DNA of 64,000 bases from Acidimicrobiales bacterium (GCA_965207755.1 OZ242297.1:2789816-2853815), one strand, 5' to 3'; counted from the first letter of the stretch, positions 7,377-43,896 are shown. Numbers and translations are program-made. The notes: generated from the sequence alone by a model not told the origin.

Positions 7377-7500
7377 GGGCGCCCCTCCCCTCGGTCTCGT
7401 GGCCCACTGCCGCTCCCATCGTACCGCCTCGGAGCGACGCCAGGGGTGCGGAACCCGCTCAGGACTCCGCCCGGGCCGCCGACCGGCCCCGGACGGCGGG

Positions 7501-8891: not shown

Positions 8892-8997
8892 GTCGTGTTC
8901 CCCGCTCCTGTTCGCTTCGCTCGCGGGCCGCTCGGGCCACGGCCTCGCCGGGCGCCCCGCCGCACTCCTCCCCACTGGCCCCTACCCGCTCGGCCTC
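8892..8997. repeat. intergenic repeat, copy X; related to 30315-30419
   Basis: The 45-nt core at 8904-8948 matches 30327-30371 with 5 mismatches (hand alignment). A second shared block reads ggccc.a.ccgctcgg.c. Confidence 0.6.
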
Positions 8998-10397
8998 TGG
9001 TCCAGCGCCTGTCGCAGCGCCCGCCCGTGGGTGGCGACCACCTCCACCGGGCGGGGAAGCTCCTGCGTGGTCATCCCGTCGAGGAAGCGGCCCCGGCTGA
9101 GGCACACGTCGGGCAGCAGGTAGCGGTGGCCCTCGGGCTCGCCGGCCAGGGCCCGGGCCGCGTCCTCGCCCACCATCAGCCCGGTCACGCCGATGTTGCC
9201 GCCGAAGAAGCGGTTCTCGACCGGTACCACGCGCGCGTCGCTGCGGCCCAGCGACTCCACCAGCGGCGACACCACCGCCGCGCCCAGGGTGCCGGTGAGC
9301 ACCGCCACGGGCGCGGTCCGGCCGGCGCGGCGCGGACCGAGCGACACCTGCACGGGCGAGCCGCCGGGACCGGCCACCACCTCGGCGGGCGAGCCCCGGC
9401 GGGGGGCGCGGTAGCCGTCGGCCGGCGCGCCGTCCACCCAGGCGAAGAAGCCCGGACGCGGCGGGGTGGGCGCGTGGCCCACCTCCGAGAACTCGATCTC
9501 GAAGGCTCGGGCCATGCCGATGCCGTCCTCGTGCATGTCGAAGCCCTCGTAGTGCTCCGCGGCCGGGAAGCTGCGCCCGCACATGAGGTAGTACTCGTCG
9601 GCCACGAACGCCAGGCGGCGACCGAGCAGCCGCAGGAACACGGCCTGCCAGCCCTCTACGAGGTCGACGACGGCGGCCGCCTCGGCCCGGGTGTGGCGCC
9701 GCATCCTGGGCTGGCGGTTGAACCTCGACAGCCCTAGGGGCACCACGCACAGCGTTCGCAGCTCCGGGAAGCGGTCGAGCACGCCCGCGAGGGTGTCGGC
9801 CAGCACGTCGCCGTCGTTGACCCCGGGGCACACCACCACCTGGCCGTGAACCTCGATGCCGGCGTCGAGCAGGAGCCGCAGCCAGCGCAGCGACACCGCG
9901 CCGCGGCGGTTCTGGAGGATCGCGGCCCGCACGTCGGGGTCGGTGGAGTGGATCGACACGTACAGCGGCGACAGCCGCTCGGTCACCACCCGCTCGTAGT
10001 CGAGCTCGGTGAACCGGGTGAGGGTGGTGAAGTTCCCGTAGAGGAACGACAGCCGGTAGTCGTCGTCCTTGAGGTACAGCGAGCGGCGCATGCCCCGCGG
10101 CAGCTGGTGCACGAAGCAGAACTCGCAGTGGTTGTCGCAGGTCTGCACCCCGTCGAACACGGCCGAGTCGACCTCCGCTCCGAGAGGCTCGCCCTCCTGC
10201 TTGGCCACCACGACGGTGAATCTCCCGCCGCCGCGCCGCACTTCGAGGGGGACCTCGGCCCCGTCGCTCAGAAGCTGCCAGCGGATCACGTCGCGGGGCG
10301 CCTCCCCGGCGATGGCCGCGACCTCGTCTCCGGGCCTCAGCCCCGCCCGCTCGGCCGGAGATCCCGACGCGACAGCCACGATCTGCGGTCCGGCCAC
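8982..10397 (-). CDS. DUF512-family radical-SAM-related protein with an N-terminal PDZ domain
   Basis: A PDZ-like N-terminus (VASGSPAERAGLRPGDEV) is followed by CDNHCEFCF and then YLKDDDYRLSFLYGNFTTLT. The start is GTG at 10397. Confidence 0.85.
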   Translation of the reverse strand: MAGPQIVAVASGSPAERAGLRPGDEVAAIAGEAPRDVIRWQLLSDGAEVPLEVRRGGGRFTVVVAKQEGEPLGAEVDSAVFDGVQTCDNHCEFCFVHQLPRGMRRSLYLKDDDYRLSFLYGNFTTLTRFTELDYERVVTERLSPLYVSIHSTDPDVRAAILQNRRGAVSLRWLRLLLDAGIEVHGQVVVCPGVNDGDVLADTLAGVLDRFPELRTLCVVPLGLSRFNRQPRMRRHTRAEAAAVVDLVEGWQAVFLRLLGRRLAFVADEYYLMCGRSFPAAEHYEGFDMHEDGIGMARAFEIEFSEVGHAPTPPRPGFFAWVDGAPADGYRAPRRGSPAEVVAGPGGSPVQVSLGPRRAGRTAPVAVLTGTLGAAVVSPLVESLGRSDARVVPVENRFFGGNIGVTGLMVGEDAARALAGEPEGHRYLLPDVCLSRGRFLDGMTTQELPRPVEVVATHGRALRQALDQRPSG

Positions 10398-20534: not shown

Positions 20535-20580
20535 CGCCGCCCCGCCCCAACTCCGGCGGAGCCGCTCGACGGTCGAGGAT

Positions 20581-21030
20581 CGCCCACCGCCGCCCGATCC
20601 CCGACCTCGCCCCGCCCTCACGGGCCGCCCACCGTGGCCAGAGGACGGATCTGATCGCCCACCGCCGCCCGATCCCCGACCTCGCCCCGCCCTCACGGGC
20701 CGCCCACCGTGGCCAGAGGACGGATCTGATCGCCCGCCGCCGCCCGATCCCCGACCTCGCCCCGCCCTCACGGGCCGCCCACCGTGGCCAGAGGGCGGAT
20801 CTGATCGCCCGCCGCCGCCCGATCCCCGACCTCGCCCCGCCCTCACGGGCCGCCCACCGTGGCCAGAGGGCGGATCTGATCGCCCACCGCCGCCCGATCC
20901 CCGACCTCGCCCCGCCCTCACGGGCCGCCCACCGTGGCCAAGGGGCGGATCTGATCGCCCACCGCCGCCCGATCCCCGACCTCGCCCCGCCCTCACGGGC
21001 CGCCCACCGTGGCCAGAGGGCGGATCTGGT
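20581..21030. repeat. tandem repeat, 6 copies of 75 bp, spanning the comEA stop and the comEA-comEC spacer
   Basis: Units start at 20581, 20656, 20731, 20806, 20881 and 20956. The copies are nearly identical, and each contains ctcacgggccgcccaccgtggccagagg.cggatctg, which is the last 12 codons plus the stop of comEA. Confidence 0.95.
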
Positions 21031-21739
21031 CGAGCTTGGCCGGGCCGATGCCGGAGACCTCGACCAGCTCGTCGACCGTGGTGAACGGGCCTGACTGCCG
21101 GCGGTGCTCGACTATGGCGGCCGCCAGCGCAGGGCCGATGCCCGGCAACTCTTGCAGCGCGGCAGCGTCTGCGGTGTTGACGTTCAGCGGTGCGCCCGCC
21201 CGTCCACTTCCCGCTCCGGCGCCTCCCGCTCCGGCGCCGCCGCCCGCTCCTGCGCTGGCCGAGACGACCTCGGGTCCCGCCGACTCCCCGACAGCCGGCA
21301 CCCACAGGCGCGCTCCGTCGCTCAGCGGCTCTGCCAGGTTGAGCCGCATCCGGTCGGCCTCGGCGGTCAGCCCGCCCGCGGCCTCGACTGCGTCGGCGAC
21401 GCGGCTGGTGGCGGGCAGTTCGTGCAGGCCGGGCCTGACCACCGCCCCGACGACGTCCACCGCTATGCGTGCCGGGTCCGCCACCGGCGACGGACCCGGC
21501 ACGGGGATCTCCACCGAGCCGGCCATCGGCAGGATCTCGGCCGGGTCCGGGCCGGCAGGCGGGCGCAGCGCCCACCAGCCCCCGAGCGCGGCGGCAGCCA
21601 CCGCGAGCGCGCCGAGGACCACCGTCACCGGGGACACGCCCAGCCGATCGGCCAGCGCTCCCGGGGATGGCACCGCGAGCCGGCGGCCGCGGCCGCCGGC
21701 GGGTGGCGTACCCATTGCCTGTCCCCACGTCGCCTGCAA
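20993..21739 (-). CDS. comEA: competence protein ComEA (SLBB domain plus helix-hairpin-helix DNA binding)
   Basis: Diagnostic segment: LNVNTADAAALQELPGIGPALAAAIVEHRRQSGPFTTVDELVEVSGIGPAKLDQI. The start is uncertain (21739 or 21715). Confidence 0.85.
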   Translation of the reverse strand: MQATWGQAMGTPPAGGRGRRLAVPSPGALADRLGVSPVTVVLGALAVAAAALGGWWALRPPAGPDPAEILPMAGSVEIPVPGPSPVADPARIAVDVVGAVVRPGLHELPATSRVADAVEAAGGLTAEADRMRLNLAEPLSDGARLWVPAVGESAGPEVVSASAGAGGGAGAGGAGAGSGRAGAPLNVNTADAAALQELPGIGPALAAAIVEHRRQSGPFTTVDELVEVSGIGPAKLDQIRPLATVGGP

Positions 21740-22684: not shown

Positions 22685-23713
22685 ATGAAGATCGACGCCT
22701 GGATCGGACTCCCCGAGGCGTCCAGCAGCCACGAGCTCGCCGCCGTCGGCGGCCGGGCCCGGATGATGGAGCAGGACGGCTACAGCGGGCTGCTGTCGGC
22801 CGAGACCAGCCACGACCCCTTCCTGCCCCTGGCGCTGGCGGCCCAGCACACCGAGCGGATCGAGTTGATGACCGCCGTCGCGGTGGGCTTCGCCCGCAAC
22901 CCGATGGTGCTGGCGCACGTCGCCTGGGACCTGCAGGCGCTGTCGCGGGGGCGGTTCCTGCTCGGGCTGGGCAGCCAGATCCAGGCCCACATCACCAAGC
23001 GCTTCTCGATGCCGTGGTCGCGTCCGGCGGCCCGCATGGAGGAGATGATCCAGGCGATCCGGGCCATCTGGGACGCATGGCAGACCGGGGAGCGCCTCGA
23101 CTTCCGGGGCGAGTTCTACCGCCACACCCTGATGACCCCCATGTTCAGCCCCGGACCCATCGACGCGCCGCCGCCGCCCATCCTGATCTCGGCGGTGGGG
23201 CCGCTGATGACCAGGGTGGCGGGCCGGGCCGCGGACGGGCTGGTGTGCCACGCCTTCCAGACGGCCGAGTACCTGCGGGACGTGACGATGCCGAACGTGC
23301 ATGCCGGGCTGGCCGAGGCGGGGCGGGACCGGTCCGGCTTCCAGATCTCGATGCCGGTGTTCGTGGTGTCGGGATTCCACGAGGAGGAGGTCGCCGCCCA
23401 GGCGGCCCGGACCCGCCAGCAGATCGCCTTCTACGGATCGACGCCCGCCTACCGGGGCGTGCTGGAGCACCACGGCTGGGGCGAAGCCCAGACCGAGCTC
23501 AACCGCCTGTCGAAGCGGGGCCAGTGGGTCGAGATGGGCAACGTGATCGACGACGGCATGCTCGGCGCCTTCGCTGTCGTGGCCGAGCCCCACGAGGTGC
23601 CGGAGCGCATCGCCGAGCGCTTCGGCGGCAGGCTCGACCGGCTCCAGTTCTACGCCGGCGTGAGGGACAAGGACCGCTGGGGCCCCATCATCGAGGAGAT
23701 CAAGGCCGCCTAG
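22685..23713 (+). CDS. luciferase-like monooxygenase family, probable F420-dependent oxidoreductase
   Basis: Family-typical segments are RIELMTAVAVGFARNPMVLAHVAWDLQALSRGRFLLGLGS and FRGEFY. Confidence 0.8.
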   Translation: MKIDAWIGLPEASSSHELAAVGGRARMMEQDGYSGLLSAETSHDPFLPLALAAQHTERIELMTAVAVGFARNPMVLAHVAWDLQALSRGRFLLGLGSQIQAHITKRFSMPWSRPAARMEEMIQAIRAIWDAWQTGERLDFRGEFYRHTLMTPMFSPGPIDAPPPPILISAVGPLMTRVAGRAADGLVCHAFQTAEYLRDVTMPNVHAGLAEAGRDRSGFQISMPVFVVSGFHEEEVAAQAARTRQQIAFYGSTPAYRGVLEHHGWGEAQTELNRLSKRGQWVEMGNVIDDGMLGAFAVVAEPHEVPERIAERFGGRLDRLQFYAGVRDKDRWGPIIEEIKAA

Positions 23714-23763: not shown

Positions 23764-23836
23764 GGGGCTATAGCTCAGTTGGTAGAGCGCTTCCATGGCA
23801 TGGAAGAGGTCAGGGGTTCAATTCCCCTTAGCTCCA
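23764..23836 (+). tRNA. tRNA-Ala (anticodon GGC)
   Basis: The cloverleaf is GGGGCTA TA GCTC AGTTGGTA GAGC G CTTCC ATGGCAT GGAAG AGGTC AGGGG TTCAATT CCCCT TAGCTCC A. The G3:U70 identity pair is present. CCA is not encoded. Confidence 0.95.
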
Positions 23837-23871
23837 CGGATCCGGGCAGCTGAACGCATCCGTCATGCGGA

Positions 23872-24891
23872 TCACGGTTTCTCCGACATACCACTAGTGT
23901 CGGCTTCCCGGCCGGGGTGGATCCTGGTGCCGGTGCGCAGGTCATGGACGGCGACGGTGCCGTCGGCGAGTTCGACGATGTGTCGGGCTCGTGTGACCTC
24001 TGGGGCTCCTGGCGCCAAGGCATCGAGTTCGCCAGCAGCGATGGCTGTCACCGATGTCGCGGCCTGCGCGATGCGCGGCGCCATCGCCGCGACGGTGTCC
24101 AGGTCGATGTCGGGACGGTCTGCGATGTAGGTGCCGGCAGCGCGCCAGATACTGAGATCTCCATAGGGCTCGTCGCCGCGGGCGACGGTGTTGGTCTCTA
24201 GGTCGGCCAGCGCGCTGTGGACGTCATCGGTGCGGGGGCCCGCCAGCGGCACCAGCAAGTCGATGCGATGCTTGTGCGGTGCCGGGGTTCCCTGGGAAGC
24301 CGCCAGGGCCTTCAGGGCGGTCTCGGCAGCCATCGCGCCGGCTGCGCAGACATCGATCAGCCGCCAGCGGGTCGCGTGGTCGTTGGGGGGCTCCAAGGCC
24401 TCCCAGTCTTCGGGCAGCATCCGGGCTCGCATCGAATGCAGCGCCTTGCTGGCCTCGTCCAAGCGGCCTAGGGCCTCGTCAGTGTTGTTGTCAGCCAAAC
24501 CGATCTCCTTGTCCCATCGCACCGCCCCGGCGGGACAGTCCACCAACATGACCGCCGACGATGCGATCCCGGCCTCAAACGACGCCGACACCTCCTTGGT
24601 GCGGCGGCGCCACTCGGCCCGATCGGTAACGAACACCTCCACGGGACTGTCCACCACACCCTCAGCAGCAGCACGCAAAGCACTGCGAACGCCGAGCCGT
24701 TCGCGGTAGTCGAGGTCATCGAATATGGCCACCAAATCGATGTCGCTGCCAACCTTCGCGCTGCCGCGGGCCACCGACCCGAACAACAGCACCTGTCCCA
24801 CACCAGCCGCAGCCAGACACTCAGCAACTCGCTGAGCCTCTTGGGCAGTCGGTGCCGACGCGGTCGCGGCGGTCGCGGTGGCCACGATCAC
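23872..24891 (-). CDS. fused minimal nucleotidyltransferase (MNT) + HEPN-domain protein with an uncharacterised C-terminal extension of about 100 aa
   Basis: The NTase motif is VLLFGSVARGSAKVGSDIDLVAIF. The HEPN-like helix pair is AAETALKALAASQG...HKHRIDLL. The gene ends 36 nt from tRNA-Ala. Confidence 0.7.
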   Translation of the reverse strand: MIVATATAATASAPTAQEAQRVAECLAAAGVGQVLLFGSVARGSAKVGSDIDLVAIFDDLDYRERLGVRSALRAAAEGVVDSPVEVFVTDRAEWRRRTKEVSASFEAGIASSAVMLVDCPAGAVRWDKEIGLADNNTDEALGRLDEASKALHSMRARMLPEDWEALEPPNDHATRWRLIDVCAAGAMAAETALKALAASQGTPAPHKHRIDLLVPLAGPRTDDVHSALADLETNTVARGDEPYGDLSIWRAAGTYIADRPDIDLDTVAAMAPRIAQAATSVTAIAAGELDALAPGAPEVTRARHIVELADGTVAVHDLRTGTRIHPGREADTSGMSEKP

Positions 24892-25106
24892 AGCCTACTC
24901 GGCTGGCAATCTCCGTTCGGGCGCTGACGGCGCTCGGCATCACCCTGCCGAGACTCGAACTCTTTATGGGCGCGGCCCTGATCCTGGCCGTCGATGTCCG
25001 GATCCAGATGTCCGGATCCAGCTGAGGCGCGAGTCGATCCATGGGACTCGATAGCGCTCGCGGCTACGGTTCGGGCACCAGTCCTGGTCCTGGGAGCAGG
25101 ACACGG

Positions 25107-25221
25107 CGCCCGAGGAGATCTGTTGGCTGACCGCAAGTCGTTCTGGGCTTCGTGCATGGAATCCGAGGAGCCCTCCCATGCCGACCGGGCCGCGCTGGCG
25201 GCCAAACTGTCGAAGCGGTAC
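25107..25221 (+). pseudogene. orphan copy of the ribosome-binding site plus first 33 codons of the FAD-oxidase gene (paralogous to 28645-28759)
   Basis: Hand alignment over 115 nt gives about 10 mismatches. The copy retains GAGGAG and the TTG start (25123). It encodes (L)ADRKSFWASCMESEEPSHADRAALAAKLSKRY and then diverges into the antisense of the permease gene. Confidence 0.65.
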
Positions 25222-25247
25222 TGGACGTCGCCAGCACAGGCCCATGT

Positions 25248-27761
25248 TCACTGGGTGGCGATGGCGTCCAGTACTTCCAGACGTCCGGCCCGGCGGGCGG
25301 GCAGGACCCCGGAGAGGAGGCCGGCAACCAGTCCGGCAGCGCCGATGGCGATCAGCGCGGCCCACGGGATGGCGAAGTCCGAGTAGGCCAGACCGAGCGC
25401 GTCGAAGGCGGCCCATCCGAAGAACAGGCCCAGCACCAGGCCGGCCAGCGTCCCGATGAGGGCGATGATGGCCGCTTCGTAGCGCACCGTCCGCCGCAGC
25501 TGGCGGGTGGTCATTCCTACCGCCCTCAGCAGACCCAGTTCCCGGGTGCGCTCGTGGATCGACAGGGACATCGTGTTCACGATGCCGATTAGAGCCACCA
25601 CGACCGACATGCCCAGCAGGGCGTACAGCAGGGTCAGCAGATCGGTGATCTGGCCCGCCTGATCGTCGATGAATTCCTGGCGGGTGCTGATCTTGGCGGT
25701 CGGGTCGCCCGCTAGGGCGGCGCCGATGCTGGCGATCAGCGCTTGGTCCGCATCGTCGGCGCTCACCAGGATCCTCGTATCAAGGCTGCGGCTCAGGCTG
25801 GCGTCCAACGACGAGTTGTCGACCAGCCACTCGCCGACGAGCTGGTATCCCCCGTCGAAGATGCCGGCCACGGTCACGGTGGCTGCTCCCTGCTGGAAGC
25901 GCATGTCGACGGTGTCGCCGATGTTGAGGCCCTCGTCCCGGGCAGTGGGCTCGCGCACGGCCACCTCGTCCGGGCCGAGGCCCGAGACCGTGCCCGCCAC
26001 CACCCCGAGATCGGCCACCGCCGCGAGACGCGCTGTGTCCGCGCCGGAGACCGGCGCGAAGCCGTCGCCGACCTGCGCGAAAGCCGTCCGGGTGCCGACC
26101 GCCGCGTCGACGCCTCCGAGGCCCCCGATGGAAGCCGCGATGGCGGGATCCAGGCCGCCGCCCGCGCCCGCCACTGCGTCGCTGACGGTCACCACATGGT
26201 CGGCGAGGAGCTCCTCTTCGAGGTCGCCGGCGATGAGTTCGCTGAGGGTGGCCGCGAAGACCGTGGCGGTGACCACCAACGCCACACCGATCATCAGCGT
26301 CAACGAAGTGGTGGAACTGCGCTTGGGATTGCGGGAGGCATTCTCGCTGGCCAGCTCGCCGGTGATCGAGCCTCGCCGCACCGCGGGAGCAGCCAGCAGC
26401 CGGCTGATGGGCCGCACGATCGTCGGACCGAGCAGCACCACCGCTATCACGACCAGCGGCAGACCCGCGTACAGGATGCGCTCCTCGCCGGAGACCGACG
26501 ACCAGGCCGTGGCCCCGGCACCGGCGGCCAGCACACTCAGCCCCCCGTACAGGCGGCCCCTCGCCGGCCCGCCCGGCTCGGCGGCCGCGTCCCGCATGGC
26601 CTCGATGGGGTCGACTCTGGCGCCCCGGCGCGCCGGAATGTAGGCGGCCGCCACCGTGATCACCGTGCCGAGCACAACGCCCTGGATGAGCCCGCCCGCC
26701 GGGACCGAAAGGCTCAGACCGAGGTCCCCGATGAAGGATCCGAGCAACTGAAGGAGCCCCCAACCGATCCCGATACCGGCGGCCGCGCCCACGGCCGAGG
26801 CGACCACGCCGATGGCGGCCGACTCGACCACGACGCTCACCGCGACCTGCCGGCCCGTGGCGCCGATGGCTCGCAGCAGGGCCATCTCCCGGGTGCGCTG
26901 GGCCACGGTGATGGTGAACGTGTTGTAGATCACGAATGCGCCCACGAAGAGCGCCACGCCGGCAAAGACCTGCAGGGCGATCTCGATGATGTTGGTGAAC
27001 GTCCCGACGACCTCCTGGAACTCGTCGGTGAGGGTGGCGCCGGTCACGGCCTCGAGGTCGGCGCCGATCCGCAGGTTGAGCCGCTCCGCCAACTGGTCGG
27101 GGGTGATCCCCGCGGCCGCCCCAGCGAAGATCTGGTCGACCTCGCTGCCGCCGAACACCGTCGCCGCGCCGGCGAAGCTCAACGAGAGGACCTGGCCGCC
27201 GAAGGTGCCGCCGTCGTCGATGGCGCCCACCACATCGAACCGCTGCTGAGGCCCCAGGGGCAGCACCTGGACGGAGTCGCCCAGACTGAAGCCGCCATCG
27301 TCGAAGGTGTTCACGTCGATGACCACCTCATCGGGCGCAACCGGGGCGCGACCCGCCACGACCGTCAGCGGATTGACCTCGTCGTCGTCGATCCAGGCGA
27401 TCGCCTGGGCGTTGGCGTCGGCGCCGCCGACGGTCTTTCCGTCCGCCGCGACCACCTGCGCATAGCCCGCCAGGAAAGGAAAGACCCACGCCACGCCGTC
27501 GACCTCGGCGATCTCGTCGGCCACCGACGGCGGGATGCGCTCGCGGATGTCGATGATCGGCGTCTCGATGATCTCGGCTGAGCGCACCGCGACGTCGACG
27601 TCCACGAAGGCCTCGGCGATGGAGTCGTTCAGCGAGTCCTCGAACGACGTGGTCATCACCGACGTGGCGGTGAAGAAGGCGATGCCCAGCACGATGGCCA
27701 GCGCGGTGGCGGCATAGCGGAAGGGGTTGCCGGCGATCCCCCGCAGCGCGATGGTCAGCAT
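25248..27761 (-). CDS. ABC transporter permease, FtsX/MacB-like (two FtsX modules, large extracytoplasmic domains)
   Basis: The 837-aa protein carries a duplicated motif: REMALLRAIGATGRQV and RELGLLRAVGMTTRQL. Confidence 0.9.
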   Translation of the reverse strand: MLTIALRGIAGNPFRYAATALAIVLGIAFFTATSVMTTSFEDSLNDSIAEAFVDVDVAVRSAEIIETPIIDIRERIPPSVADEIAEVDGVAWVFPFLAGYAQVVAADGKTVGGADANAQAIAWIDDDEVNPLTVVAGRAPVAPDEVVIDVNTFDDGGFSLGDSVQVLPLGPQQRFDVVGAIDDGGTFGGQVLSLSFAGAATVFGGSEVDQIFAGAAAGITPDQLAERLNLRIGADLEAVTGATLTDEFQEVVGTFTNIIEIALQVFAGVALFVGAFVIYNTFTITVAQRTREMALLRAIGATGRQVAVSVVVESAAIGVVASAVGAAAGIGIGWGLLQLLGSFIGDLGLSLSVPAGGLIQGVVLGTVITVAAAYIPARRGARVDPIEAMRDAAAEPGGPARGRLYGGLSVLAAGAGATAWSSVSGEERILYAGLPLVVIAVVLLGPTIVRPISRLLAAPAVRRGSITGELASENASRNPKRSSTTSLTLMIGVALVVTATVFAATLSELIAGDLEEELLADHVVTVSDAVAGAGGGLDPAIAASIGGLGGVDAAVGTRTAFAQVGDGFAPVSGADTARLAAVADLGVVAGTVSGLGPDEVAVREPTARDEGLNIGDTVDMRFQQGAATVTVAGIFDGGYQLVGEWLVDNSSLDASLSRSLDTRILVSADDADQALIASIGAALAGDPTAKISTRQEFIDDQAGQITDLLTLLYALLGMSVVVALIGIVNTMSLSIHERTRELGLLRAVGMTTRQLRRTVRYEAAIIALIGTLAGLVLGLFFGWAAFDALGLAYSDFAIPWAALIAIGAAGLVAGLLSGVLPARRAGRLEVLDAIATQ

Positions 27762-27767
27762 CGCCGA

Positions 27768-28547
27768 TCAGTTCCCCAGCGTCTTCATGTGATCGAGCAC
27801 CGCTTCGCTGGTGGGGTCGAGCATCTCGTTGACGATCTTGCCATCGACCAGGAAGATCACCCGGTGCGCGTAGGCGGCCGCCGAGGGATCGTGAGTCACC
27901 ATCACGATGGTCTGGGAGAGCTCGTCCACCGCGCGGCGCATGAAGGTCAGGATCTCGTCGCTGGTGGTGCTGTCGAGGTTTCCGGTGGGCTCGTCCGCGA
28001 ACACCAGCTTGGGCTTGGACACCAGGGCCCGGGACACGGCCACGCGCTGCTGCTGCCCGCCGGAGAGCTCGTTGGGCCGGTGGTCGAGGCGGTGGCCCAG
28101 GCCGACGGTGGCGACCACCTCGTCGAGCCAAGCCTCGTCGGGGGCGCGCCCGGCGAGGCGCTGGGGCAGCACGATGTTCTCGCGGGCGTTGAGGGTGGGC
28201 ACCAGGTTGAACGCCTGGAAGACGAAACCGAGCTTGTCGCGCCGCAGCATCGTGCGCTCGCGGTCCGACATCTCGCTCACGTCCTCGCCGTCGATGACGA
28301 CCCGACCCGAGGTGAGGGTGTCCAGTCCGGCCATGCAGTGCATCAGCGTCGACTTGCCCGACCCCGACGGTCCCATGATGGCCGTGAACTCTCCGGTCCC
28401 GAAGGAGACGTCAACGCCGTCGAGGGCGCGCACCTCGGCGGCGCCGCTCCCGTAGTGCCGGGCCGCGTTCTCGGTGTAGGCGACGCCCGGATCGCTGCCG
28501 GAACCCGTGTCAGGTCCGGCCGCTGGTGCAGGTTCAGTCTCAGGCAT
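27768..28547 (-). CDS. ABC transporter ATP-binding protein (MacB/LolD-like)
   Basis: Walker A is GPSGSGKSTL, the signature is LSGGQQQRVAVSRAL and Walker B is LVFADEPTGNLD. Confidence 0.95.
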   Translation of the reverse strand: MPETEPAPAAGPDTGSGSDPGVAYTENAARHYGSGAAEVRALDGVDVSFGTGEFTAIMGPSGSGKSTLMHCMAGLDTLTSGRVVIDGEDVSEMSDRERTMLRRDKLGFVFQAFNLVPTLNARENIVLPQRLAGRAPDEAWLDEVVATVGLGHRLDHRPNELSGGQQQRVAVSRALVSKPKLVFADEPTGNLDSTTSDEILTFMRRAVDELSQTIVMVTHDPSAAAYAHRVIFLVDGKIVNEMLDPTSEAVLDHMKTLGN

Positions 28548-28660
28548 CAGGCGAGCCTACGTCCCCAGTCCTGATCCGCGATGAGATGCTCCGGACTGGC
28601 GAGGCCCGGCACCGCACGCCTACCGTGGCGCCGGCACGCCGCGACGCCCGAGGAGCGCCG

Positions 28661-30262
28661 TTGACTGACCGCAAGTCGTTCTGGGCTTGGTGTATGGAGT
28701 CCGAGGAGCCCTCCGACGCCGACCGGGCCGCGCTGGCGGCCAAGCTGTCGAAGCGGTACGGCACCGAGATTGTCGCCAGGCCGGTGCCGTCGCTGGACGA
28801 CGCCGAACTTAGGGCGCCCCGCATCCCGGTGCCGGACTCGGTGGCCGGCTGGTGCTCGACCACCACCTACGACCGGGCCCGTCACGCCTACGGCGCCCAC
28901 TTCACCGAACGGGTGCGGGCATTCAACCTCGACTTCGGCAACCCGCCCGACGTGGTGGCCCACCCCCGCGACGAGACAGAGGTGGAGGCCACCCTCGACT
29001 GGTGCGACGCCAACGGCTACGTGACCGTCCCCTACGGCGGCGGATCCTCGGTGGTGTGGGGCGTCACCCCCCACGACGACCTGGGACCCACCGTGGTGGT
29101 CTCCCTCGACCGGCTCGACCGGGTGCTGGAGATCGACGACGTGTCCCGGGCGGCCCGCATCCAGGCCGGAGTGTTCGGGCCGCACCTCGAGGACCAGCTC
29201 CGCCCCAGCGGCCACACGCTCAGACACTTCCCGCAGTCGTTCCGGTTCTCCACCCTCGGCGGCTGGATCGCCACCCGCTCCGGGGGCCACTACGCCACCA
29301 ACCACACCCACATCGACGACTTCGTCGAGTCGGTGCGCATGATCACCCCGGCCGGGTGGTGGGAGTCGCGCCGGCTGCCCGGATCGGGCGCGGGCCCGAG
29401 CCCCGACCGCATGGTCATCGGCTCCGAAGGCGTCTACGGCATCATCACCGAGGCCTGGATGAGGGTCCAGCGCCGGCCGACCTTCCGGGCCACCGCCGGG
29501 GTCACGTTCGAGTCGTGGCGGGCCGGCTGCGATGCCGTGCGCCGTATCGTGCAGGCCAAGCTGTGGCCGGCCAACCTCCGCATCCTCGACCCCGCCGAGG
29601 CTCGCCGGGCCGCGGGGCTCGACGGCGAGCAGGCGCTGGCGATCGTGTCGTTCGAGTCGGCCGAGCTCAGCCAGCGCCACAACATCGCGGCCGCTGTGGA
29701 GATCGCCCGCGACAGCGGCGGCCGCGTCGACGACGACGACATCCGGGTCGACGACGGGACGGGCAAGCCCACCGGCCGCGGCGGCGCGGTCGGTGCCTGG
29801 CGCAACGCCTTCATCGGTGTCGGCAACGGCGTGGAGACCTCGCTGGGCCTGATCAACGACACGTTCGAGACCGCCGTCACATGGGACCGCTGGCCCGACT
29901 TCGACGACGAGATCCGCACCCGGGTGGGCGCCGCCCTCGCCGACACGTTCGGGCCGCACCACTCGCTGTCGTGCCGGTTCACCCACGTCTACACCGACGG
30001 CCCCGCCCCCTACTACACATGGTCGGGCATGGGCGCGGTGGGCAGCGAGATCGCCCAGTGGCAGATCGTCAAGGACGCAGCCAACCAGGCGGTCGTCGAT
30101 GCGGGCGGCACCGTCACCCACCACCACGCGGTGGGCCGCATGCACCGGCCCGGCGGCTACGACCGCCAGCGCCCCGAGCTGTTCGCCGAAGCCGTCCGGG
30201 CCGTCAAGCAGCGCCTCGACCCCAACGGCATCCTCAACCCCGGCGTGCTCATCGACCCCTGA
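28661..30262 (+). CDS. FAD-linked oxidase (alkyldihydroxyacetone-phosphate-synthase-like)
   Basis: TTG 28661 lies 5 nt after GAGGAG. The FAD-binding PCMH-type region is VTVPYGGGSSVVWGV. The C-terminus (HHHAVGRMH...DPNGILNPGVLI) is typical of the family. Confidence 0.85.
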   Translation: MTDRKSFWAWCMESEEPSDADRAALAAKLSKRYGTEIVARPVPSLDDAELRAPRIPVPDSVAGWCSTTTYDRARHAYGAHFTERVRAFNLDFGNPPDVVAHPRDETEVEATLDWCDANGYVTVPYGGGSSVVWGVTPHDDLGPTVVVSLDRLDRVLEIDDVSRAARIQAGVFGPHLEDQLRPSGHTLRHFPQSFRFSTLGGWIATRSGGHYATNHTHIDDFVESVRMITPAGWWESRRLPGSGAGPSPDRMVIGSEGVYGIITEAWMRVQRRPTFRATAGVTFESWRAGCDAVRRIVQAKLWPANLRILDPAEARRAAGLDGEQALAIVSFESAELSQRHNIAAAVEIARDSGGRVDDDDIRVDDGTGKPTGRGGAVGAWRNAFIGVGNGVETSLGLINDTFETAVTWDRWPDFDDEIRTRVGAALADTFGPHHSLSCRFTHVYTDGPAPYYTWSGMGAVGSEIAQWQIVKDAANQAVVDAGGTVTHHHAVGRMHRPGGYDRQRPELFAEAVRAVKQRLDPNGILNPGVLIDP

Positions 30263-30314
30263 ACCTGTCCTTCGGAGCAGGCGCAAGCAGGTGGAAGCCT
30301 GTCGCGTCGCAGAG

Positions 30315-30419
30315 GTGTCGTTTCGCGCTCATGTTCGCCGCGCTCACGGGCCGCTCGGGCCACGGCCTCGCTCTGCATCTCGTCGCGATCCCCGCCGTGA
30401 AGGCCCATCCGCTCGGTCC
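30315..30419. repeat. intergenic repeat, copy Y; related to 8892-8997
   Basis: See copy X for the shared sequence. This copy contains a 36-codon ORF (ATG 30331 to TGA 30439-30441) that overlaps the GTG start (30434) of the downstream CoA-transferase. Confidence 0.6.
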
Positions 30420-33384: not shown

Positions 33385-36300
33385 CGTGGTCGGTGGGTGT
33401 GGGTCGATGGAGGTTCGAGCGCCTGAGGGCGGTACCGGAGGGCTCGGGGCGCGGTCGGGAGTTCGGGGCGGCTTCGCTGGAGCTGGTGTTGTTGGTGCCG
33501 GCGTTGACGGCTCTGGTGTTGTTCGTGGTGTGGGCGGGCGCCGGGGGGCGTGCGGGTCTGGTGGCTGATCTCGCCGCGGAGGAGGCGGCTGCGGCGGCGG
33601 GGATGGCGTGTGATCCTGCGGACGCGGCCGGGGATGCGCAGTGTCTGGATTCGGTGGCTCGGGAGGTTCTGGGGGCGCGCCCGGGTCTCGGGGAATTGTG
33701 CGTGGGAGGCGCAGCGCCGTCGCGGCCCGGGACGGGTCTCGCCTCCCGGCAGGGCGATGCGGTGTCGGTGGGGGTGCTGTGCCGCGCGGCAGGGGCGGCT
33801 GCGCCGTTGGGGGGTCTCGCCCCGGCGGTGGACTTCTACGGCGAGGGCACCCACGTCGTTGTGCTGCCCGACCGCTCCGTGACCGTCGCCGCCGTCTCCT
33901 CCGGCGTCACCGAGGGCTCAGACGCCGAGTTCGCGGTGACGGTGGCGCCTCCGCCCGCGGGGGCACTCGAGTTGGTGGTGACGTTGAGCGAGGACGGCGG
34001 TTTCGTGGACGGCGGCTACCTGGGCGGCCACCCGCTGGCAGTGCCCCCCTTCCCGGTCACCGAGGCGCCCAAGATCGACTTCGGTGACGGCACCCGGCTG
34101 GACGCCGACGGCGCCGTGGTCGGCGCCGACGACGCCGCCGACAGCGTGGTGTACAGGTTCGCGGTGCCGACCGTCGACGACGGCGCGGTGGAGCCAGACG
34201 GTTGGGTCCAGGCCGCCGTGGCGGTCGCGGCCGGCGACGGCTACCGGCCCGGCGCGCCGGCGCGTGTCGCCGTGCTCGACGACGACGTGCCCACCGTGAC
34301 CGTCGCCGCCGCCGACCACGACCCCGCCACACCCGGCGCGCAGACCGCCGTCACCGAGGGCGACGTCGGCGACCCGGCCGTCTACGCGGTGTTCACCGTC
34401 ACCGCGGACCAGTCGCCCGCCGAGGACACCACCATCCGGCTGTCGGTCACTGAGACCGGCGACCAGATCGCCGCCGCCGCCGAAGGCCCCAAGACAGTCA
34501 CCATCGCCAAGGGCGCCACTGCAGCCACCTACCGCGTCCCCGTCGCCGCCGACGACCGAGTCGAGGCCTCCAGCACCGTGACCGCCGCCATCACCGCGGA
34601 CGCCGCATACGCCGTGGGCGCGCCGTCGTCGGCGCCGGTGACCGTGCTCGACGACGACGTGCCCACCGTGACCGTCGCCGCCGCCGACCACGACCCCGCC
34701 ACACCCGGCGTGCAGACCGCCGTCACCGAGGGCGACGCCACCGAGTTCACCGTGTCGGTCCCCTCCCAGCACGCGCCCCTCACCGACCTCACCGTCAACC
34801 TCACCGTCACCCAGACCGGCCAGTACGTCCCCGCCGCAGGACTCGGCGCCCGCAGCGTCACCATCGACAAGGGCGCCACCACGGCCCGATTCGCCGTCGC
34901 CACCGTCGACGACAGCACCCCGGAGCCCCCGGGCGCGGTCACCGCCACTGTCACCGCCGCCCCAGATTATGCCGTGGGCGTGCCGTCATCGGCGTCGGTG
35001 GACGTGCTCGACGACGACGTGCCCGAAGTCACCGTCACCGCCGGAGCGGACGTCACCGAAGCCGACCCCGGCGACGCGGCGGTGTTCGCGGTGTTCACCG
35101 TCACCGCGGACCACGCCCCGGTCATAGACACCGCGGTGAGCCTGTCGGTCACGGAGACCGGCGACCAGATCGCCGCGGCCGCCGAGGGCGAGCACACGGC
35201 CACCATCGCCAAAGGCGCCACCACCGCCGTGCTGCGCGTCGCCGTCGCCGCCGACGACAGAGTCGAGGCCTCCAGCACCGTGACCTCCGTTATCGAGCCC
35301 GCCTCGGGGTATTCGGTGGGCGTTCCCGCCAGCGCCTCGCTGCAGGTGCTCGACGACGACCTGCCAGAAGTGACCGTCGCCGCCGGCCCCGACGTCTATG
35401 AGGGCTCCCCGGCGAAGTTCACCGTCGCCGCGGACCAGCCGCCCATCGCGGACACCGCAGTCACCCTGACAATCGCTGAGACCGGCAGCGAACTGCGCTC
35501 AGGCCAGACCGGCGCCCACACCGTCACCATACGGAAGGGCACCACCACCGCAACCCATCCGGTGCTGACCCGCGCCGACGACAACCGAGTCGAAGCAGGC
35601 AGCCGGATCACCGCCACCGTCGCAGCCGTCACCGTCGCCTCCGGCTATGGCGTCGGCGTTCCCGGGTCGGCAGAGCTGTCGGTCAAAGACAACGACAGGC
35701 CCGCAGTGTCGGTATCGCCCGGCCCGGCCATCACCGAAGGCCAGACCGCGGAGTTCACCGTGTCGGTGCCCATCCAGCACGCGCCCCTCGCCGACCTCAC
35801 CGTGCAGGTTGACGTCACCCAGACCGGCCGATACGCCGCGTCTGGCCAGACCGGCGCCCGCAGCGCCACCATCGCCAAGGGCGCCACGACAGCCAAACTC
35901 GCCGTCGCCACCATCGACGACACCACCCCGGAACCCGCAGGCGCGATCACCGCTGCAATCACCAGCGTCACCGCCGACGCCGACTACACCGTCACCGCGC
36001 CCTCCACCGCAACCGTCGCCGTCAACGACAACGAACCCACCGTCACCATCACCGCCGACACCCCAGCCGTCACCGAAGGCGACAGCGCCGCGTTCACCGT
36101 CCGCGCCGACCCCGCACCCAGCGCCGACCTCACCGTGCGAGTCAACATCACCCAGACCGGCCAATACGCCGCCGCCTCCGCCCTCGGCGCCCGCAGCGTC
36201 ACCATCACCAAGAACACCACCACCGCCAAACTCGCCGTCGCCACCGTCGACGACACCACCGTCGAACCCGCCGGAACCGTCACCGCCACCATCAGGACCG

Positions 36301-37529
36301 CAGCCGCCACCCCCCACACCGTCAAGAATCCATCCACCGCCACAATCACCGTCAACGACAACGAACCCGCTGTCACCATCACCGCCGACACCCCAGCCGT
36401 CACCGAAGGCGACAGCGCCGCGTTCACCGTCCGCGCCGACCCCGCACCCAGCGCCGACCTCACCGTGCGAGTCAACATCACCCAGACCGGCCAATACGCC
36501 GCCGCCTCCGCCCTCGGCGCCCGCAGCATCACCATCACCAAGAACACCACCACCGCCAAACTCGCCGTCGCCACCGTCGACGACACCACCGTCGAACCCG
36601 CCGGAACCGTCACCGCCACCATCAGGACCGCAGCCGCCACCCCCCACACCGTCAAGAATCCATCCACCGCCACAATCACCGTCAACGACAACGACCAGGT
36701 CGTCACCGTCACCGCCGACGCCACGGCGGTCACCGAAGGAGCCGACGCCGCCTTCACTGTCCGCGCCGACCCCGCACCCGGCAGCGACCTCACCGTCAAC
36801 ATCACCGTCACCCAGACCGGCGAATACGTCGCCGCCGCCAACCTCGGAACCCGCAACATCACCATCGCCAAAGGTGCCGCCACCGCCAGACTAGCCGTCC
36901 CGACCGTCGACGACCGGCGGGACGAACACCCCGGAACCGTCACCGTCACCGTCAACACCGCAGCCGGCTACACCCGAGGCACCCCCGACACCGCCACAAC
37001 CACAGTCAACGACAACGACCCACCGCTGTCCGGTATCATACCGGGCTACAGAGGATGCAACAGCGGCTATCTCCTGTACGAAGGCACCAGCACCAACTTC
37101 TGCGTGTTCAGCATGCCGCGGTACGGGCTGACCGCCGACGTCGACTACACGATCTACTTCGCCCAACTTGACTGGAGCACTCTTCCAATCGGGTGGACGG
37201 TGGACAGCGAGCGTCTCATTCTGCGGAATCTCAACGAGGCCGTGGCGGGCACGAGCTGCGGGTCGGGCGTCGACATCGTCATGTTGGACTGGGTGGACGG
37301 CACCTTCGGCAAGGATGCGGAATTCGATGCCGCCGTCGAGGGAGCCGGCGCCCTGCGGGGAACGGTCAAGGAGGGCAAGAGCATCCATCTGGCATGGGAC
37401 ATCAGAGTATGCAACGACTATGTGAAAGAAGGATGGGAACTGACCGCAATAAGGATCACATTCGAATCCGGAGGTCAAACCCGGACCTACAAAATCCCCA
37501 CGCTGTTGTTGGTGAGAGACAACGACTGA
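33375..37529 (+). CDS. giant surface protein: TadE-like pseudopilin N-terminus, 9 Calx-beta-like repeats and a novel Cys-containing C-terminal domain
   Basis: The N-terminus REFG|AASLELVLLVPALTALVLFVVWA fits a prepilin-type G|xxxxE site and the TadE family. Nine repeats of about 110 aa follow (VTEGD.A.FTV...LTV.V.VTQTG.Y....GARSVTI.KG.TTA.LAV.TVDD...EP.G.VTA). The last 170 aa or so are unrelated and have lower G+C. Confidence 0.8.
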   Translation: MPSSWSVGVGRWRFERLRAVPEGSGRGREFGAASLELVLLVPALTALVLFVVWAGAGGRAGLVADLAAEEAAAAAGMACDPADAAGDAQCLDSVAREVLGARPGLGELCVGGAAPSRPGTGLASRQGDAVSVGVLCRAAGAAAPLGGLAPAVDFYGEGTHVVVLPDRSVTVAAVSSGVTEGSDAEFAVTVAPPPAGALELVVTLSEDGGFVDGGYLGGHPLAVPPFPVTEAPKIDFGDGTRLDADGAVVGADDAADSVVYRFAVPTVDDGAVEPDGWVQAAVAVAAGDGYRPGAPARVAVLDDDVPTVTVAAADHDPATPGAQTAVTEGDVGDPAVYAVFTVTADQSPAEDTTIRLSVTETGDQIAAAAEGPKTVTIAKGATAATYRVPVAADDRVEASSTVTAAITADAAYAVGAPSSAPVTVLDDDVPTVTVAAADHDPATPGVQTAVTEGDATEFTVSVPSQHAPLTDLTVNLTVTQTGQYVPAAGLGARSVTIDKGATTARFAVATVDDSTPEPPGAVTATVTAAPDYAVGVPSSASVDVLDDDVPEVTVTAGADVTEADPGDAAVFAVFTVTADHAPVIDTAVSLSVTETGDQIAAAAEGEHTATIAKGATTAVLRVAVAADDRVEASSTVTSVIEPASGYSVGVPASASLQVLDDDLPEVTVAAGPDVYEGSPAKFTVAADQPPIADTAVTLTIAETGSELRSGQTGAHTVTIRKGTTTATHPVLTRADDNRVEAGSRITATVAAVTVASGYGVGVPGSAELSVKDNDRPAVSVSPGPAITEGQTAEFTVSVPIQHAPLADLTVQVDVTQTGRYAASGQTGARSATIAKGATTAKLAVATIDDTTPEPAGAITAAITSVTADADYTVTAPSTATVAVNDNEPTVTITADTPAVTEGDSAAFTVRADPAPSADLTVRVNITQTGQYAAASALGARSVTITKNTTTAKLAVATVDDTTVEPAGTVTATIRTAAATPHTVKNPSTATITVNDNEPAVTITADTPAVTEGDSAAFTVRADPAPSADLTVRVNITQTGQYAAASALGARSITITKNTTTAKLAVATVDDTTVEPAGTVTATIRTAAATPHTVKNPSTATITVNDNDQVVTVTADATAVTEGADAAFTVRADPAPGSDLTVNITVTQTGEYVAAANLGTRNITIAKGAATARLAVPTVDDRRDEHPGTVTVTVNTAAGYTRGTPDTATTTVNDNDPPLSGIIPGYRGCNSGYLLYEGTSTNFCVFSMPRYGLTADVDYTIYFAQLDWSTLPIGWTVDSERLILRNLNEAVAGTSCGSGVDIVMLDWVDGTFGKDAEFDAAVEGAGALRGTVKEGKSIHLAWDIRVCNDYVKEGWELTAIRITFESGGQTRTYKIPTLLLVRDND
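36021..36680 (+). repeat. near-identical 330-bp tandem duplication inside the giant gene (two Calx-beta-like units)
   Basis: The anchor gtcaacgaca recurs at 36021, 36351 and 36681. By eye, units 36021-36350 and 36351-36680 differ at only a few positions. Confidence 0.9.
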
Positions 37530-43660: not shown

Positions 43661-43896
43661 CGATCCTTCCCGTTCCGCCGATTCCGTCGAGAGCCGAGCC
43701 GGTAGACCCGAACCGCTCGTCGGTGCAGCGAGTCCGTTGAGCGACGCCGTGACCCGAGCGGCCCTCAGGTCGCCGCGAACAAGAGCAGAAATCGTAACAC
43801 TCCGCCGCGAGACGCCCCGGATCCGCCCGCGCTCGGCCGCGGCCACGACGCAACCGATGGCGGCTCGGCGGCAAACGGCTGATAGAAGAAGCCGCC

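Follow-up and report, generated by a model that had tools for sequence, protein, structure and literature searches.

A probable recombination scar at a hypervariable locus of an Acidimicrobiales bacterium: an orphaned oxidase gene start beside an ABC-transporter operon

Results

Genes and features at the locus

We analysed a 64-kb window (64,000 nucleotides) from a metagenome-assembled genome of an Acidimicrobiales bacterium; positions are counted from its first letter, and loci of relatives are designated by L and a number. In the region concerned, genes for a luciferase-like (LLM) oxidoreductase and tRNA-Ala are followed by a nucleotidyltransferase-domain gene, a truncated copy of the start of an FAD-linked oxidase gene, an ABC-transporter operon, and the intact oxidase gene (Table 1).

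Table 1 Features between the left border and the intact oxidase gene, with the evidence for each
Feature	Position	Strand	Evidence
Luciferase-like (LLM) oxidoreductase, conserved gene bordering the variable locus on the left	22685..23713	+	Pfam PF00296
tRNA-Ala(GGC)	23764..23837	+	ARAGORN, Rfam RF00005
Nucleotidyltransferase-domain gene	23872..24891	-	Pfam PF01909/PF18765; weak NCBIfam and PADLOC hits
geneA relic, last ~45 codons, relic stop TAG 25052-25054	24901..25054	+	Alignment to L002:8631-9932 and L021:7203-8387, and translations
U_A, type-A intergenic region and 5' leader of oxidase	25055..25122	+	Multiple alignment, blastn
Left repeat copy	25096..25226	+	Repeat search, alignment, blastn
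Orphan oxidase codons 1-33, TTG start	25123..25221	+	Alignment, blastn, orthologue comparison
Junction of oxidase relic and ABC operon	25222..25247	.	Sequence comparison
Duplicated FtsX/MacB-type ABC permease, 837 aa	25248..27761	-	Pfam PF02687 x2
ABC ATPase, 259 aa	27768..28547	-	Pfam PF00005; NCBIfam LolD/MacB-like, below equivalog cut-offs
U_B, type-B intergenic region between ATPase and oxidase	28548..28660	.	Comparison with relatives
Right repeat copy (RBS region and true oxidase start)	28634..28764	+	Repeat search, alignment
Intact FAD-linked oxidase, 533 aa, conserved gene bordering the variable locus on the right	28661..30262	+	Pfam PF01565 and PF02913

The LLM gene also adjoins tRNA-Ala in L002, L006-L012, L017, L021, L022, and L090-L092, and homology with relatives on this side stops exactly at the 3' end of the tRNA gene (23837/8, blastn). 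The nucleotidyltransferase gene has an MntA-like N-terminus that scored below the curated cut-off, and it gave no tblastn match in 80 related loci. This cassette, which is present in conspecific contigs and was seen in this species only, stands in place of most of geneA, a gene for a multi-TM membrane protein without a Pfam family. ComEA- and ComEC-type genes are located 3-5 kb to the left. The permease yielded further hits to PF12704 (MacB_PCD, precomputed annotation) and, in part, to NCBIfam ADOP/MacB models. Between the repeats, permease and ATPase are followed by an intergenic stretch that extends up to the right repeat at 28634.

A single direct repeat derived from the start of the oxidase gene

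The repeat search returned one outstanding direct repeat, 25096-25226 versus 28634-28764, which is ungapped over 131 nt with 88% identity and a spacing of 3538; the next-best repeat families were 40-50 nt at 65-75% identity, and blastn revealed no third copy in the 64-kb window. The chance probability of the repeat, a binomial tail at the base composition of the window times the number of position pairs that 64 kb allows, was approximately 5e-35. Base-by-base comparison gave 16 mismatches over the 131 nt and exactly 10 in the 115-nt core (25107-25221), the number that an earlier note on this sequence had counted by hand, and with its full ungapped extent the similarity was neither shorter nor weaker than that hand alignment. 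With a 7-nt gap allowed, eight further bases match (GTCGCCAG, 25228-25235). Relative to the oxidase start, the repeat in the window extends from -27, where similarity stops, to +99.

As had been proposed, the FAD oxidase gene truly starts in the right copy, which contains GAGGAG, TTG at 28661, and codons 1-33; orthologues in the 80 loci that were kept from 565 relatives found share this start position. The left copy likewise retains GAGGAG and a TTG at 25123 and diverges after codon 33, and its core ends 26 nt (25222-25247) before the permease stop codon at 25248-25250. The similarity of the two copies is due solely to their content, in that each consists of the RBS region and the N-terminal codons of the oxidase gene, which are conserved.

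The orphan frame stays open for 87 aa, as far as a stop at 25384-25386, and runs antisense to the 3' end of the permease gene. It has nevertheless decayed: it carries the substitution W10S, at a position where Trp was invariant in all 81 of 81 orthologue hits, as well as D19H, and with its continuation past codon 33 antisense to the permease it showed no sign of purifying selection.

Two halves of the locus are collinear with different relatives

The repeat is real, but the supposed duplication proved to be just the conserved part of a larger relic of approximately 320 nt (24901-25221), in which the 3' end of geneA (last ~45 codons), the leader U_A, and oxidase codons 1-33 follow one another. 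This relic is collinear with the geneA-oxidase region of the related Acidimicrobiia genomes L002, L011, L012, L018, and L001 at 81-84% nucleotide identity (83.6% versus L002 9790-10099 by blastn), and U_A stands upstream of the intact oxidase gene in L002, L011, L001, L018, L012, and L021. A tandem duplication of 14 nt (24993-25006 and 25007-25020; TRF row 24993-25021) has shifted the reading frame of the geneA relic.

The ABC operon, U_B, and the oxidase gene (25248-30394) are collinear with L010 at 92.5%. Homology to L010 begins exactly at the permease stop (window 25248, L010 6589), and in L010 the operon adjoins the oxidase gene without any left copy. U_B is common to L010, L071, and L091, and in part to L013-L016 and L042. 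We refer to the order geneA, U_A, oxidase as type A and to permease, ATPase, U_B, oxidase as type B. The seven differences between the repeat copies at -27 to -2 split cleanly, with the left copy having the type-A states and the right copy the type-B (L010) states.

The junction at 25222-25247 matched neither partner convincingly and contained no clear microhomology, the sole resemblance being GCCAGC/GTCGCCAG. Its sequence up to 25235 is possibly derived from the oxidase gene with a 7-nt deletion.

In their coding part, both copies resemble the L002-type allele, sharing ATG at codon 12, CCCGAGGAG, and possibly GTCGCCAG; these shared states require later gene conversion or an origin in the same lineage. 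The left flank is L002-like at 67-83% of informative sites, and on the right side of the ABC operon the site patterns of a three-taxon comparison form a mosaic.

Variable contents between conserved borders

LLM/tRNA-Ala and the oxidase gene are conserved among relatives, with at least six different contents between them; L010, for instance, has an Amt transporter there, and L002 has genes for M24 peptidase, PhyH, Amdase, and PPC. Relatives lacking the ABC operon were predicted to have a single oxidase start beside tRNA-Ala, and this was found for L006, L009, and L017, in which the end of the tRNA gene lies approximately 45 nt before the oxidase TTG with nothing between them. Both copies without intervening cargo were encountered in none of the relatives examined.

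The ABC operon occurs in at least five contexts with unchanged gene boundaries, including directly after tRNA-Ala (L021, L092), directly after the geneA stop codon (L090), and beside a nearly deleted oxidase gene (L091). A second oxidase start was absent from L010, L021, L090, L091, and L092, all of which carry the operon. The description of the operon as a module bracketed by repeats therefore holds for the window but is not a property of the module, and we rejected att sites and a target-site duplication as explanations of the repeats because the same operon is found in these other contexts without the left copy.

L015 carries an independent orphan oxidase start (7386-7567, 75-79% identity to its right copy), which is embedded among HEPN, HTH, and PIN genes. 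Its start codon has been lost (TTG to TCG), one TGG has become TAG, and the end points of its repeat, approximately -82 to +78, are unlike those in the window.

Mobile-element features and assembly integrity

No integrase, recombinase, or transposase was detected by Pfam analysis of all genes from the LLM gene to the CoA-transferase gene or in precomputed Pfam annotation of ±10 kb in L081. The repeat search found neither terminal inverted repeats pairing the module ends nor a repeat of the tRNA 3' end. A transposon or insertion sequence with a target-site duplication was rejected, given that the repeat is 131 nt long and imperfect and that terminal inverted repeats and a transposase are lacking. 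The earlier note had suggested a composition check on the ABC genes; they have the same composition as their flanks, with no GC anomaly, and thus give no sign of a distant origin.

The junction and both copies recur in independent assemblies and samples (NCBI GCA_028819505.1, ENA ERZ23495530 and ERZ23495468, and JGI 3300009940, in which a single contig spans both copies), and a Logan unitig crosses the left junction. The junction is therefore not a misassembly. All conspecific contigs have the same structure. The left copy is identical in three of them, which are themselves approximately 99% identical overall. In a fourth, L084, 5 of 201 positions in the left-copy region differ, exceeding its average of 0.9%, and right-copy alleles are present at 25151 and 25155. 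A metagenome pattern scan for the pre-event haplotype gave 0 hits.

Discussion

The earlier note had read the left copy as an old scar, and it is indeed an orphaned, truncated oxidase start. We consider it very probable that the locus contains an inert recombination scar at a hypervariable site, rather than a mobile element or a module with a function. The stretch from tRNA-Ala to the FAD oxidase gene in this Acidimicrobiia group would have gained, lost, and swapped cassettes by recombination anchored in its conserved neighbours, the LLM gene and tRNA-Ala on the left and the oxidase gene on the right. In the present lineage, a type-A and a type-B arrangement may have been joined by one homologous crossover within a conserved flank and one illegitimate crossover that fused the type-A oxidase, at codon ~33-38, to DNA just past the permease stop codon. 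The outcome would be a type-A leader with 33 codons orphaned on the left side of the ABC operon, with an intact oxidase gene and its type-B leader on the right side. Replacement of most of geneA by the nucleotidyltransferase gene was presumably a separate event.

We infer that recombination was responsible and that it acted in one step, and we lean towards homology-facilitated illegitimate recombination (HFIR) or an equivalent displacement event as the mechanism. As such a process predicts, the truncated orphan keeps the native flank of the alternative arrangement and the intact copy has another flank, and conserved anchor genes border a region with differing cargo in relatives. HFIR has been described during natural transformation in Acinetobacter, S. 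pneumoniae, and P. stutzeri (reviewed in PMC3240628). There, as proposed here, one conserved flank serves as a homologous anchor, the other end joins without homology, and extra DNA is trapped beside the anchor. Competence-type genes, ComEA and ComEC, lie near the locus in the window, and DNA uptake by the host lineage is plausible for this reason. The present case differs in that it concerns an uncultured lineage, is deduced from comparative anatomy alone, and has a junction without clear microhomology. Several observations weigh against the proposed mechanism: the junction lacks clear microhomology, both copies share states in their coding part, and the pre-event haplotype appeared neither in the metagenome scan nor among the conspecific contigs. 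The site patterns on the right are mosaic and delimit no donor tract; the ABC operon may have entered a geneA-oxidase chromosome, or a geneA-oxidase fragment may have entered beside a resident ABC operon.

Campbell-type insertion-duplication would invoke a 3.5-kb circle containing U_B, oxidase codons 1-33, the junction, permease, and ATPase. One homologous crossover between this circle and the 5' end of the oxidase gene in a type-A chromosome would insert it, leaving the left copy truncated and the right copy intact. It reproduces the topology exactly, with direct repeats of the homology segment bracketing the whole insert, a 3'-truncated left copy, and an intact right copy whose leader is supplied by the insert, and the first ~800 nt of the oxidase gene after U_B are L002-like (61-65% of informative sites), as if the recipient gene resumed there. 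We nevertheless regard it as unlikely. No circular intermediate or vector is known here, and a Logan contig (L086, window 25127-28694) with a length of 3568 nt, equal to 3538 + 30, does not prove a circle, since a k=31 graph yields such a contig at a repeat. The coding part of the left copy is not L010-like, contrary to a donor-derived segment, and the expected reciprocal hybrid is not seen in the alleles. The model also requires prior illegitimate circularisation together with a replicon or an uptake route for circles, and the L015 orphan brackets no simple insert.

The alleles common to the coding part of both copies would also be accounted for if permease, ATPase, U_B, and oxidase 5' end had been tandemly duplicated or amplified in a type-B ancestor, of which the present repeat would be what is left, and if type-A DNA had subsequently taken the place of the left unit by homologous recombination via LLM/tRNA-Ala and the 126-nt oxidase 5' homology; the fusion of oxidase codon 33 to the permease flank would then be an ordinary duplication join point. 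Such a history is distinctly improbable, in that U_A and U_B, the upstream flanks, show no relationship to each other, the ABC genes are present once with no further copy or fragment, two rare steps are needed while an unstable 3.5-kb duplication persisted, and the intermediate is seen in no relative.

We give little credence to retention of the orphan for a function, in which the displaced oxidase promoter and RBS would drive a putative antisense RNA or 87-aa peptide, convergent with the permease gene, that tunes ABC expression. The RBS, TTG, and 87-codon open frame are intact, U_A is whole, and the left copy is invariant in three conspecific contigs, but this identity carries no weight in view of their overall similarity and the divergence of L084. 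Loss of the invariant Trp, together with loss of the start codon in the L015 orphan, argues against a conserved coding function for the predicted ORF. Searches for promoter, terminator, Rfam, and structure signals found none, and L010 has the same operon without an orphan.

Islands and prophages that have inserted in genes typically have long imperfect direct repeats by which the end of the gene is rebuilt. The repeats might accordingly be attL and attR of an integrative island, one with the oxidase 5' end as its target and a restored gene start as the result, with a recombinase encoded elsewhere. The locus shares with tRNA-linked islands variable cargo beside a tRNA gene and direct repeats around a gene module, relatives have some toxin-antitoxin or defence-like cargo, and the second duplicated oxidase start, in L015, lies near cargo rich in genes of this type. 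Here, however, it is the oxidase start and not the 3' end of the tRNA gene that the repeats copy, a gene for an integrase, excisionase, or transposase is found neither in the bracketed segment nor within ±10 kb, the repeats are missing where the ABC module sits elsewhere, their end points differ between the window and L015, and composition is native. We therefore judge this explanation very improbable. The probability of an assembly chimera of type-A and type-B strains joined at the shared oxidase start is negligible despite the metagenomic source and the match of the two halves to different relatives, given that the junction and the right copy have no k-mer in common, which excludes graph collapse, and that the junction recurs in the independent assemblies.

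The displacement that we propose has a parallel in Rhs/CDI and T6SS effector-immunity loci, where orphan fragments derive from the old gene end displaced by an incoming module (PMC5361080). In both cases, a constant gene borders a variable region, the incoming DNA carries its own copy of the constant part, and the old end is displaced and persists as a truncated orphan, part of which is still homologous to the constant gene. The present locus is a mirror image, with the 5' end and leader of a metabolic oxidase gene orphaned instead of the 3' tip of a toxin gene, and its cargo is an ABC exporter rather than toxin/immunity pairs. Its orphans are single and do not form arrays, and selective logic such as retained immunity is not applicable. 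As in Rhs and T6SS loci, orphans have appeared in independent lineages, those of the window and of L015.

The direct repeat and the orphan oxidase start

A repeat search of the window identified one outstanding family, an ungapped direct repeat of 131 nt with 88% identity whose two copies are spaced by 3538 nt; no third copy was found in the 64 kb. Base-by-base comparison revealed 16 mismatches in the 131 nt; with every pair of positions in the window considered, approximately 5e-35 such repeats would be expected by chance. If a 7-nt gap is allowed, 8 more bases (GTCGCCAG) align between the copies. The 115-nt core, for which the earlier note had estimated about 10 mismatches, contains exactly 10. 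The gene assignments of that note (permease, ATPase, and FAD-linked oxidase) were borne out, as was its observation that the left copy retains GAGGAG and a TTG codon and departs from the oxidase after codon 33. This point is separated from the permease stop codon by 26 nt.

Features of the repeat region and other repeats, in window positions
Feature	Position	Strand	Remarks
Nucleotidyltransferase gene (NTase)	23872-24891
Tandem duplication in geneA relic	24993-25020		14 nt, perfect
Stop codon of geneA relic	25052-25054
Intergenic region U_A	25055-25122
Left repeat copy	25096-25226
Orphan TTG	25123
Stop codon of orphan frame	25384-25386
ABC permease	25248-27761	-	duplicated FtsX/MacB-type, 837 aa
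ABC ATPase	27768-28547	-	259 aa
Right repeat copy	28634-28764
Oxidase TTG	28661		orthologous start in 80 related loci
FAD-linked oxidase	28661-30262	+	533 aa; PF01565 + PF02913
Dispersed GC-rich repeat	30320-30371; 8897-8948
Dispersed GC-rich repeat	43739-43786	-
75-nt tandem array	20578-21032		6.1 copies, 97% matches
Inverted repeat GGATCCG...CGGATCC	23838-23875		directly 3' of tRNA-Ala
Long internal repeats	35789-36966; 34246-34737		330-nt period, 3.6 copies, 86%

In the left copy, Ser replaces W10, a Trp residue that is invariant in 81 orthologue hits, and a His takes the place of an Asp found in most of these hits (67), none of which has His there. Past codon 33, the orphan frame runs antisense through the 3' end of the permease gene, giving 87 amino acids in total. 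The idea that the left copy holds a regulatory RNA or a terminator was rejected: Rfam at permissive E-values returned only tRNA, a promoter and terminator scan detected no consensus near the repeat copies, and past the permease stop codon the minus strand showed no unusual fold (z = -0.8). The orphan TTG should not be annotated as the start of a gene, nor should the repeat be taken for an att site or a transposon footprint.

Origin of the left copy

With the oxidase protein as query, 80 loci (kept of 565 relatives) were retrieved from species-representative genomes together with 10-kb flanks. All are from Acidimicrobiia MAGs, the closest of which are named Ca. Aldehydirespirator. Collinearity with the oxidase start and the sequence directly upstream in loci L002 (VYFQ01000003.1), L011, L012, L018, and L001 was not limited to 25096-25221 but covered 24901-25221, with nucleotide identities of 81-84%. 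In these loci a plus-strand gene, geneA (for example L002:8631-9932), stops 68 nt short of the oxidase; its multi-TM product has no Pfam family. We refer to the order geneA, U_A (the intergenic region), and oxidase as type A. The window keeps the last ~45 codons of geneA, a complete U_A, and oxidase codons 1 to 33. The geneA relic is broken and frame-shifted by the tandem duplication (GATGTCCGGATCCA twice), which was not seen in any aligned relative. The region 25248-30394 is collinear with L010 (OZ220743.1) at 92.5%, and consists of permease, ATPase, a different upstream region (U_B), and oxidase (type B); homology to L010 starts exactly at the permease stop codon.

Seven differences between the repeat copies at positions -27 to -2 are cleanly split, the left copy having the type-A states and the right copy the type-B states of L010. 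What produced the repeat is therefore the juxtaposition of two alternative arrangements upstream of the oxidase; its limits are simply the conservation limits of the RBS region and NH2-terminal codons. The earlier interpretation of the repeat as a scar stands in outline, but the repeats do not belong to the ABC module as such. Given that the ABC operon (permease and ATPase) is flanked by 131-nt, 88%-identical direct repeats, it is prone to loss by homologous recombination.

An exact-protein look-up with the ATPase yielded eight contigs from different samples in NCBI (GCA_028819505.1), ENA (among them ERZ23495530), JGI (3300009940), and Logan, which share approximately 99% identity with the window. 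Every one that reaches far enough has NTase, left copy, permease, ATPase, and oxidase; one JGI contig spans both repeat copies, and a Logan unitig crosses the left junction. An assembly artefact was rejected as the origin of the repeat, given that the junction is shared by assemblies of different samples. The length of Logan contig L086 (3568 nt, or 3538 + 30 nt) was rejected as evidence of a circle, since a break of the k=31 graph is expected at the repeat. No pre-insertion haplotype was recovered by exact-protein look-ups, which returned the same arrangement (ATPase and NTase) or nothing (oxidase), and a degenerate 37-nt pattern of U_A and the start had 0 matches in metagenome contigs. Three conspecific contigs have identical left copies. 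In a further one, L084, 5 of 201 positions are different; right-copy alleles are present at two of these (25151 and 25155), which suggests that the copies have occasionally undergone gene conversion or that decay has been slower in the L084 strain.

A hypervariable locus between tRNA-Ala and the oxidase

The stretch between LLM (a luciferase-like oxidoreductase gene)/tRNA-Ala and the oxidase is hypervariable. In L006, L009, and L017 it is empty, with tRNA-Ala ending ~45 nt before the oxidase start. L002, L011, L012, and L018 contain geneA, U_A, and oxidase, with four extra genes between LLM and the tRNA in L002. The order in L010 is tRNA, ammonium transporter, ABC operon, U_B, and oxidase, without a second oxidase start. 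The ABC operon lies ~30 nt past tRNA-Ala in L021 and L092, followed in L021 by 2.2 kb, geneA, U_A, and oxidase; in L090, the permease stop is 13 nt from the geneA stop codon. In L091 (LXNI01000216.1), ATPase and U_B are followed by an oxidase remnant (codon 2 fused to the last ~17 codons) and a CoA-transferase gene, nearly all of the oxidase between ATPase and CoA-transferase having been deleted. At least one relative can therefore do without the oxidase.

The ABC operon was thus found in at least five contexts. Its limits are the permease stop and a point ~20 nt upstream of the ATPase start, and it has no terminal repeats. No integrase or transposase was found between the anchors or within 10 kb on either side. 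A classical tRNA island was rejected, as there is no repeat of the tRNA-Ala 3' end and there are no inverted repeats at the module ends. The composition check proposed earlier gave no foreign signal, the GC content of the operon (0.68-0.73) being like that of its flanks. NTase, which has taken the place of most of geneA, has no counterpart in the 80 loci; here a cassette was exchanged in a separate event, between the tRNA 3' end and position 24901. Membership of NTase or the ABC genes in a defence system was rejected, with PADLOC and NCBIfam giving only weak, sub-threshold domain matches.

A second orphan was detected in L015, a locus of a different species of the same family. This ~180-nt segment (7386-7567) comprises U_B and oxidase codons 1 to ~26, matches its own right copy (9919-10078) at 75-79% identity, and lies 2.5 kb upstream of the intact oxidase, with a HEPN_Swt1/MerR gene and an HTH/PIN pair in between. 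Its start has been lost (TTG to TCG), and a TGG has become TAG. The sister loci L013, L014, L016, and L042 have a single copy of the oxidase start, and they are again homologous to L015 from 210 nt upstream of the right copy; the orphan lies deeper in the variable region, beside segments located elsewhere in L016. The repeat end points differ between L015 and the window, a pattern that fits recurrent imprecise recombination rather than a fixed crossover site. Upstream of the L015 right copy, ~20 nt of the ABC ATPase start also survive as a relic.

Mechanism and alternatives

The left copy is very probably an inert recombination scar at a hypervariable locus, and neither a mobile element nor a functional module. 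Its anatomy calls for one homologous exchange in a conserved flank together with one illegitimate join of oxidase codon ~33-38 to the permease-distal flank. Such a combination is the signature of homology-facilitated illegitimate recombination, a described mechanism (PMC3240628), and, judging from the locus comparisons, we lean towards such recombination or displacement. Orphaned gene ends are likewise left by "displacement" events at Rhs and T6SS loci (PMC5361080), and the anatomy matches these events too. Two directions are possible: import of the ABC operon, U_B, and a new oxidase start into a type-A chromosome, or import of a fragment with NTase, geneA relic, U_A, and oxidase 5' end beside a resident ABC-oxidase pair.

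A donor-tract search (sliding identity and three-taxon informative sites, window versus L002 and L010) revealed a mosaic that fits either direction. The share of informative sites matching L002 rather than L010 was 67-83% in the left flank at 19.5-23.8 kb (L002-like), 61-65% at 28.5-29.5 kb (weakly L002-like), and 28-50% at 29.5-31.5 kb (L010-like), with a mosaic beyond 31.5 kb.

A single Campbell-type crossover, with a circular intermediate, would give the same end product but is unlikely, as it needs extra steps and has no specific support; tandem duplication followed by replacement, with again the same outcome, meets the same objections and is slightly less likely still. It is highly improbable that the oxidase 5' end is a dedicated landing pad, with repeated integration of cassettes carrying their own leader and first ~30 codons, a recombinase encoded elsewhere, and the displaced promoter perhaps co-opted to regulate the new cargo antisense; if true, this would constitute a gene-start-replacing, integron-like acquisition site with independent cases here and in L015. 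A site-specific (att) origin is likewise highly improbable, as three of its defining features are lacking.

The scar adds one more case to a known kind of recombination relic and is no pointer to a new mechanism. Its importance beyond annotation is small, its value being annotation caution and a documented natural case. In an uncultured, apparently sponge-associated Acidimicrobiia lineage, it cleanly illustrates how orphaned gene starts are left behind when cassettes turn over at a tRNA-linked hypervariable locus; empty, alternative, and deleted states are preserved in relatives.

Other repeats

ComEA- and ComEC-type genes lie 3-5 kb left of the locus, and the 75-nt array is located between or overlaps them; its copy number is apparently different in conspecific contig L081. 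A CTCACGGGCCGCC...GTGGCC motif in the unit is similar to a dispersed, GC-rich intergenic repeat of ~50-90 nt (core ...GCGCTCATGTTCGCCGCGCTCACGGGCCGCTCGGGCCACGGCCTCGC...) that looks REP- or MITE-like. The latter also occurs at unrelated intergenic positions in L003, L005, L006, L007, L008, L021, L023, L045, and L048, with two copies in L021, one of them within U_A at 8410-8477. L021 also has a tRNA-Ala homologue at ~2960-3010 with an internal deletion (...CCATGGCAT|TCAATTCC...) and no ARAGORN call, reflecting either real tRNA loss or an assembly error. A string similar to the inverted repeat 3' of tRNA-Ala, CCGGATCCAGCTGA, is present at the end of the geneA relic (25011-25026), which may be coincidence. 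The long internal repeats sit inside a ~1380-aa gene with faint LapA matches, whose product is likely a giant repetitive surface protein.
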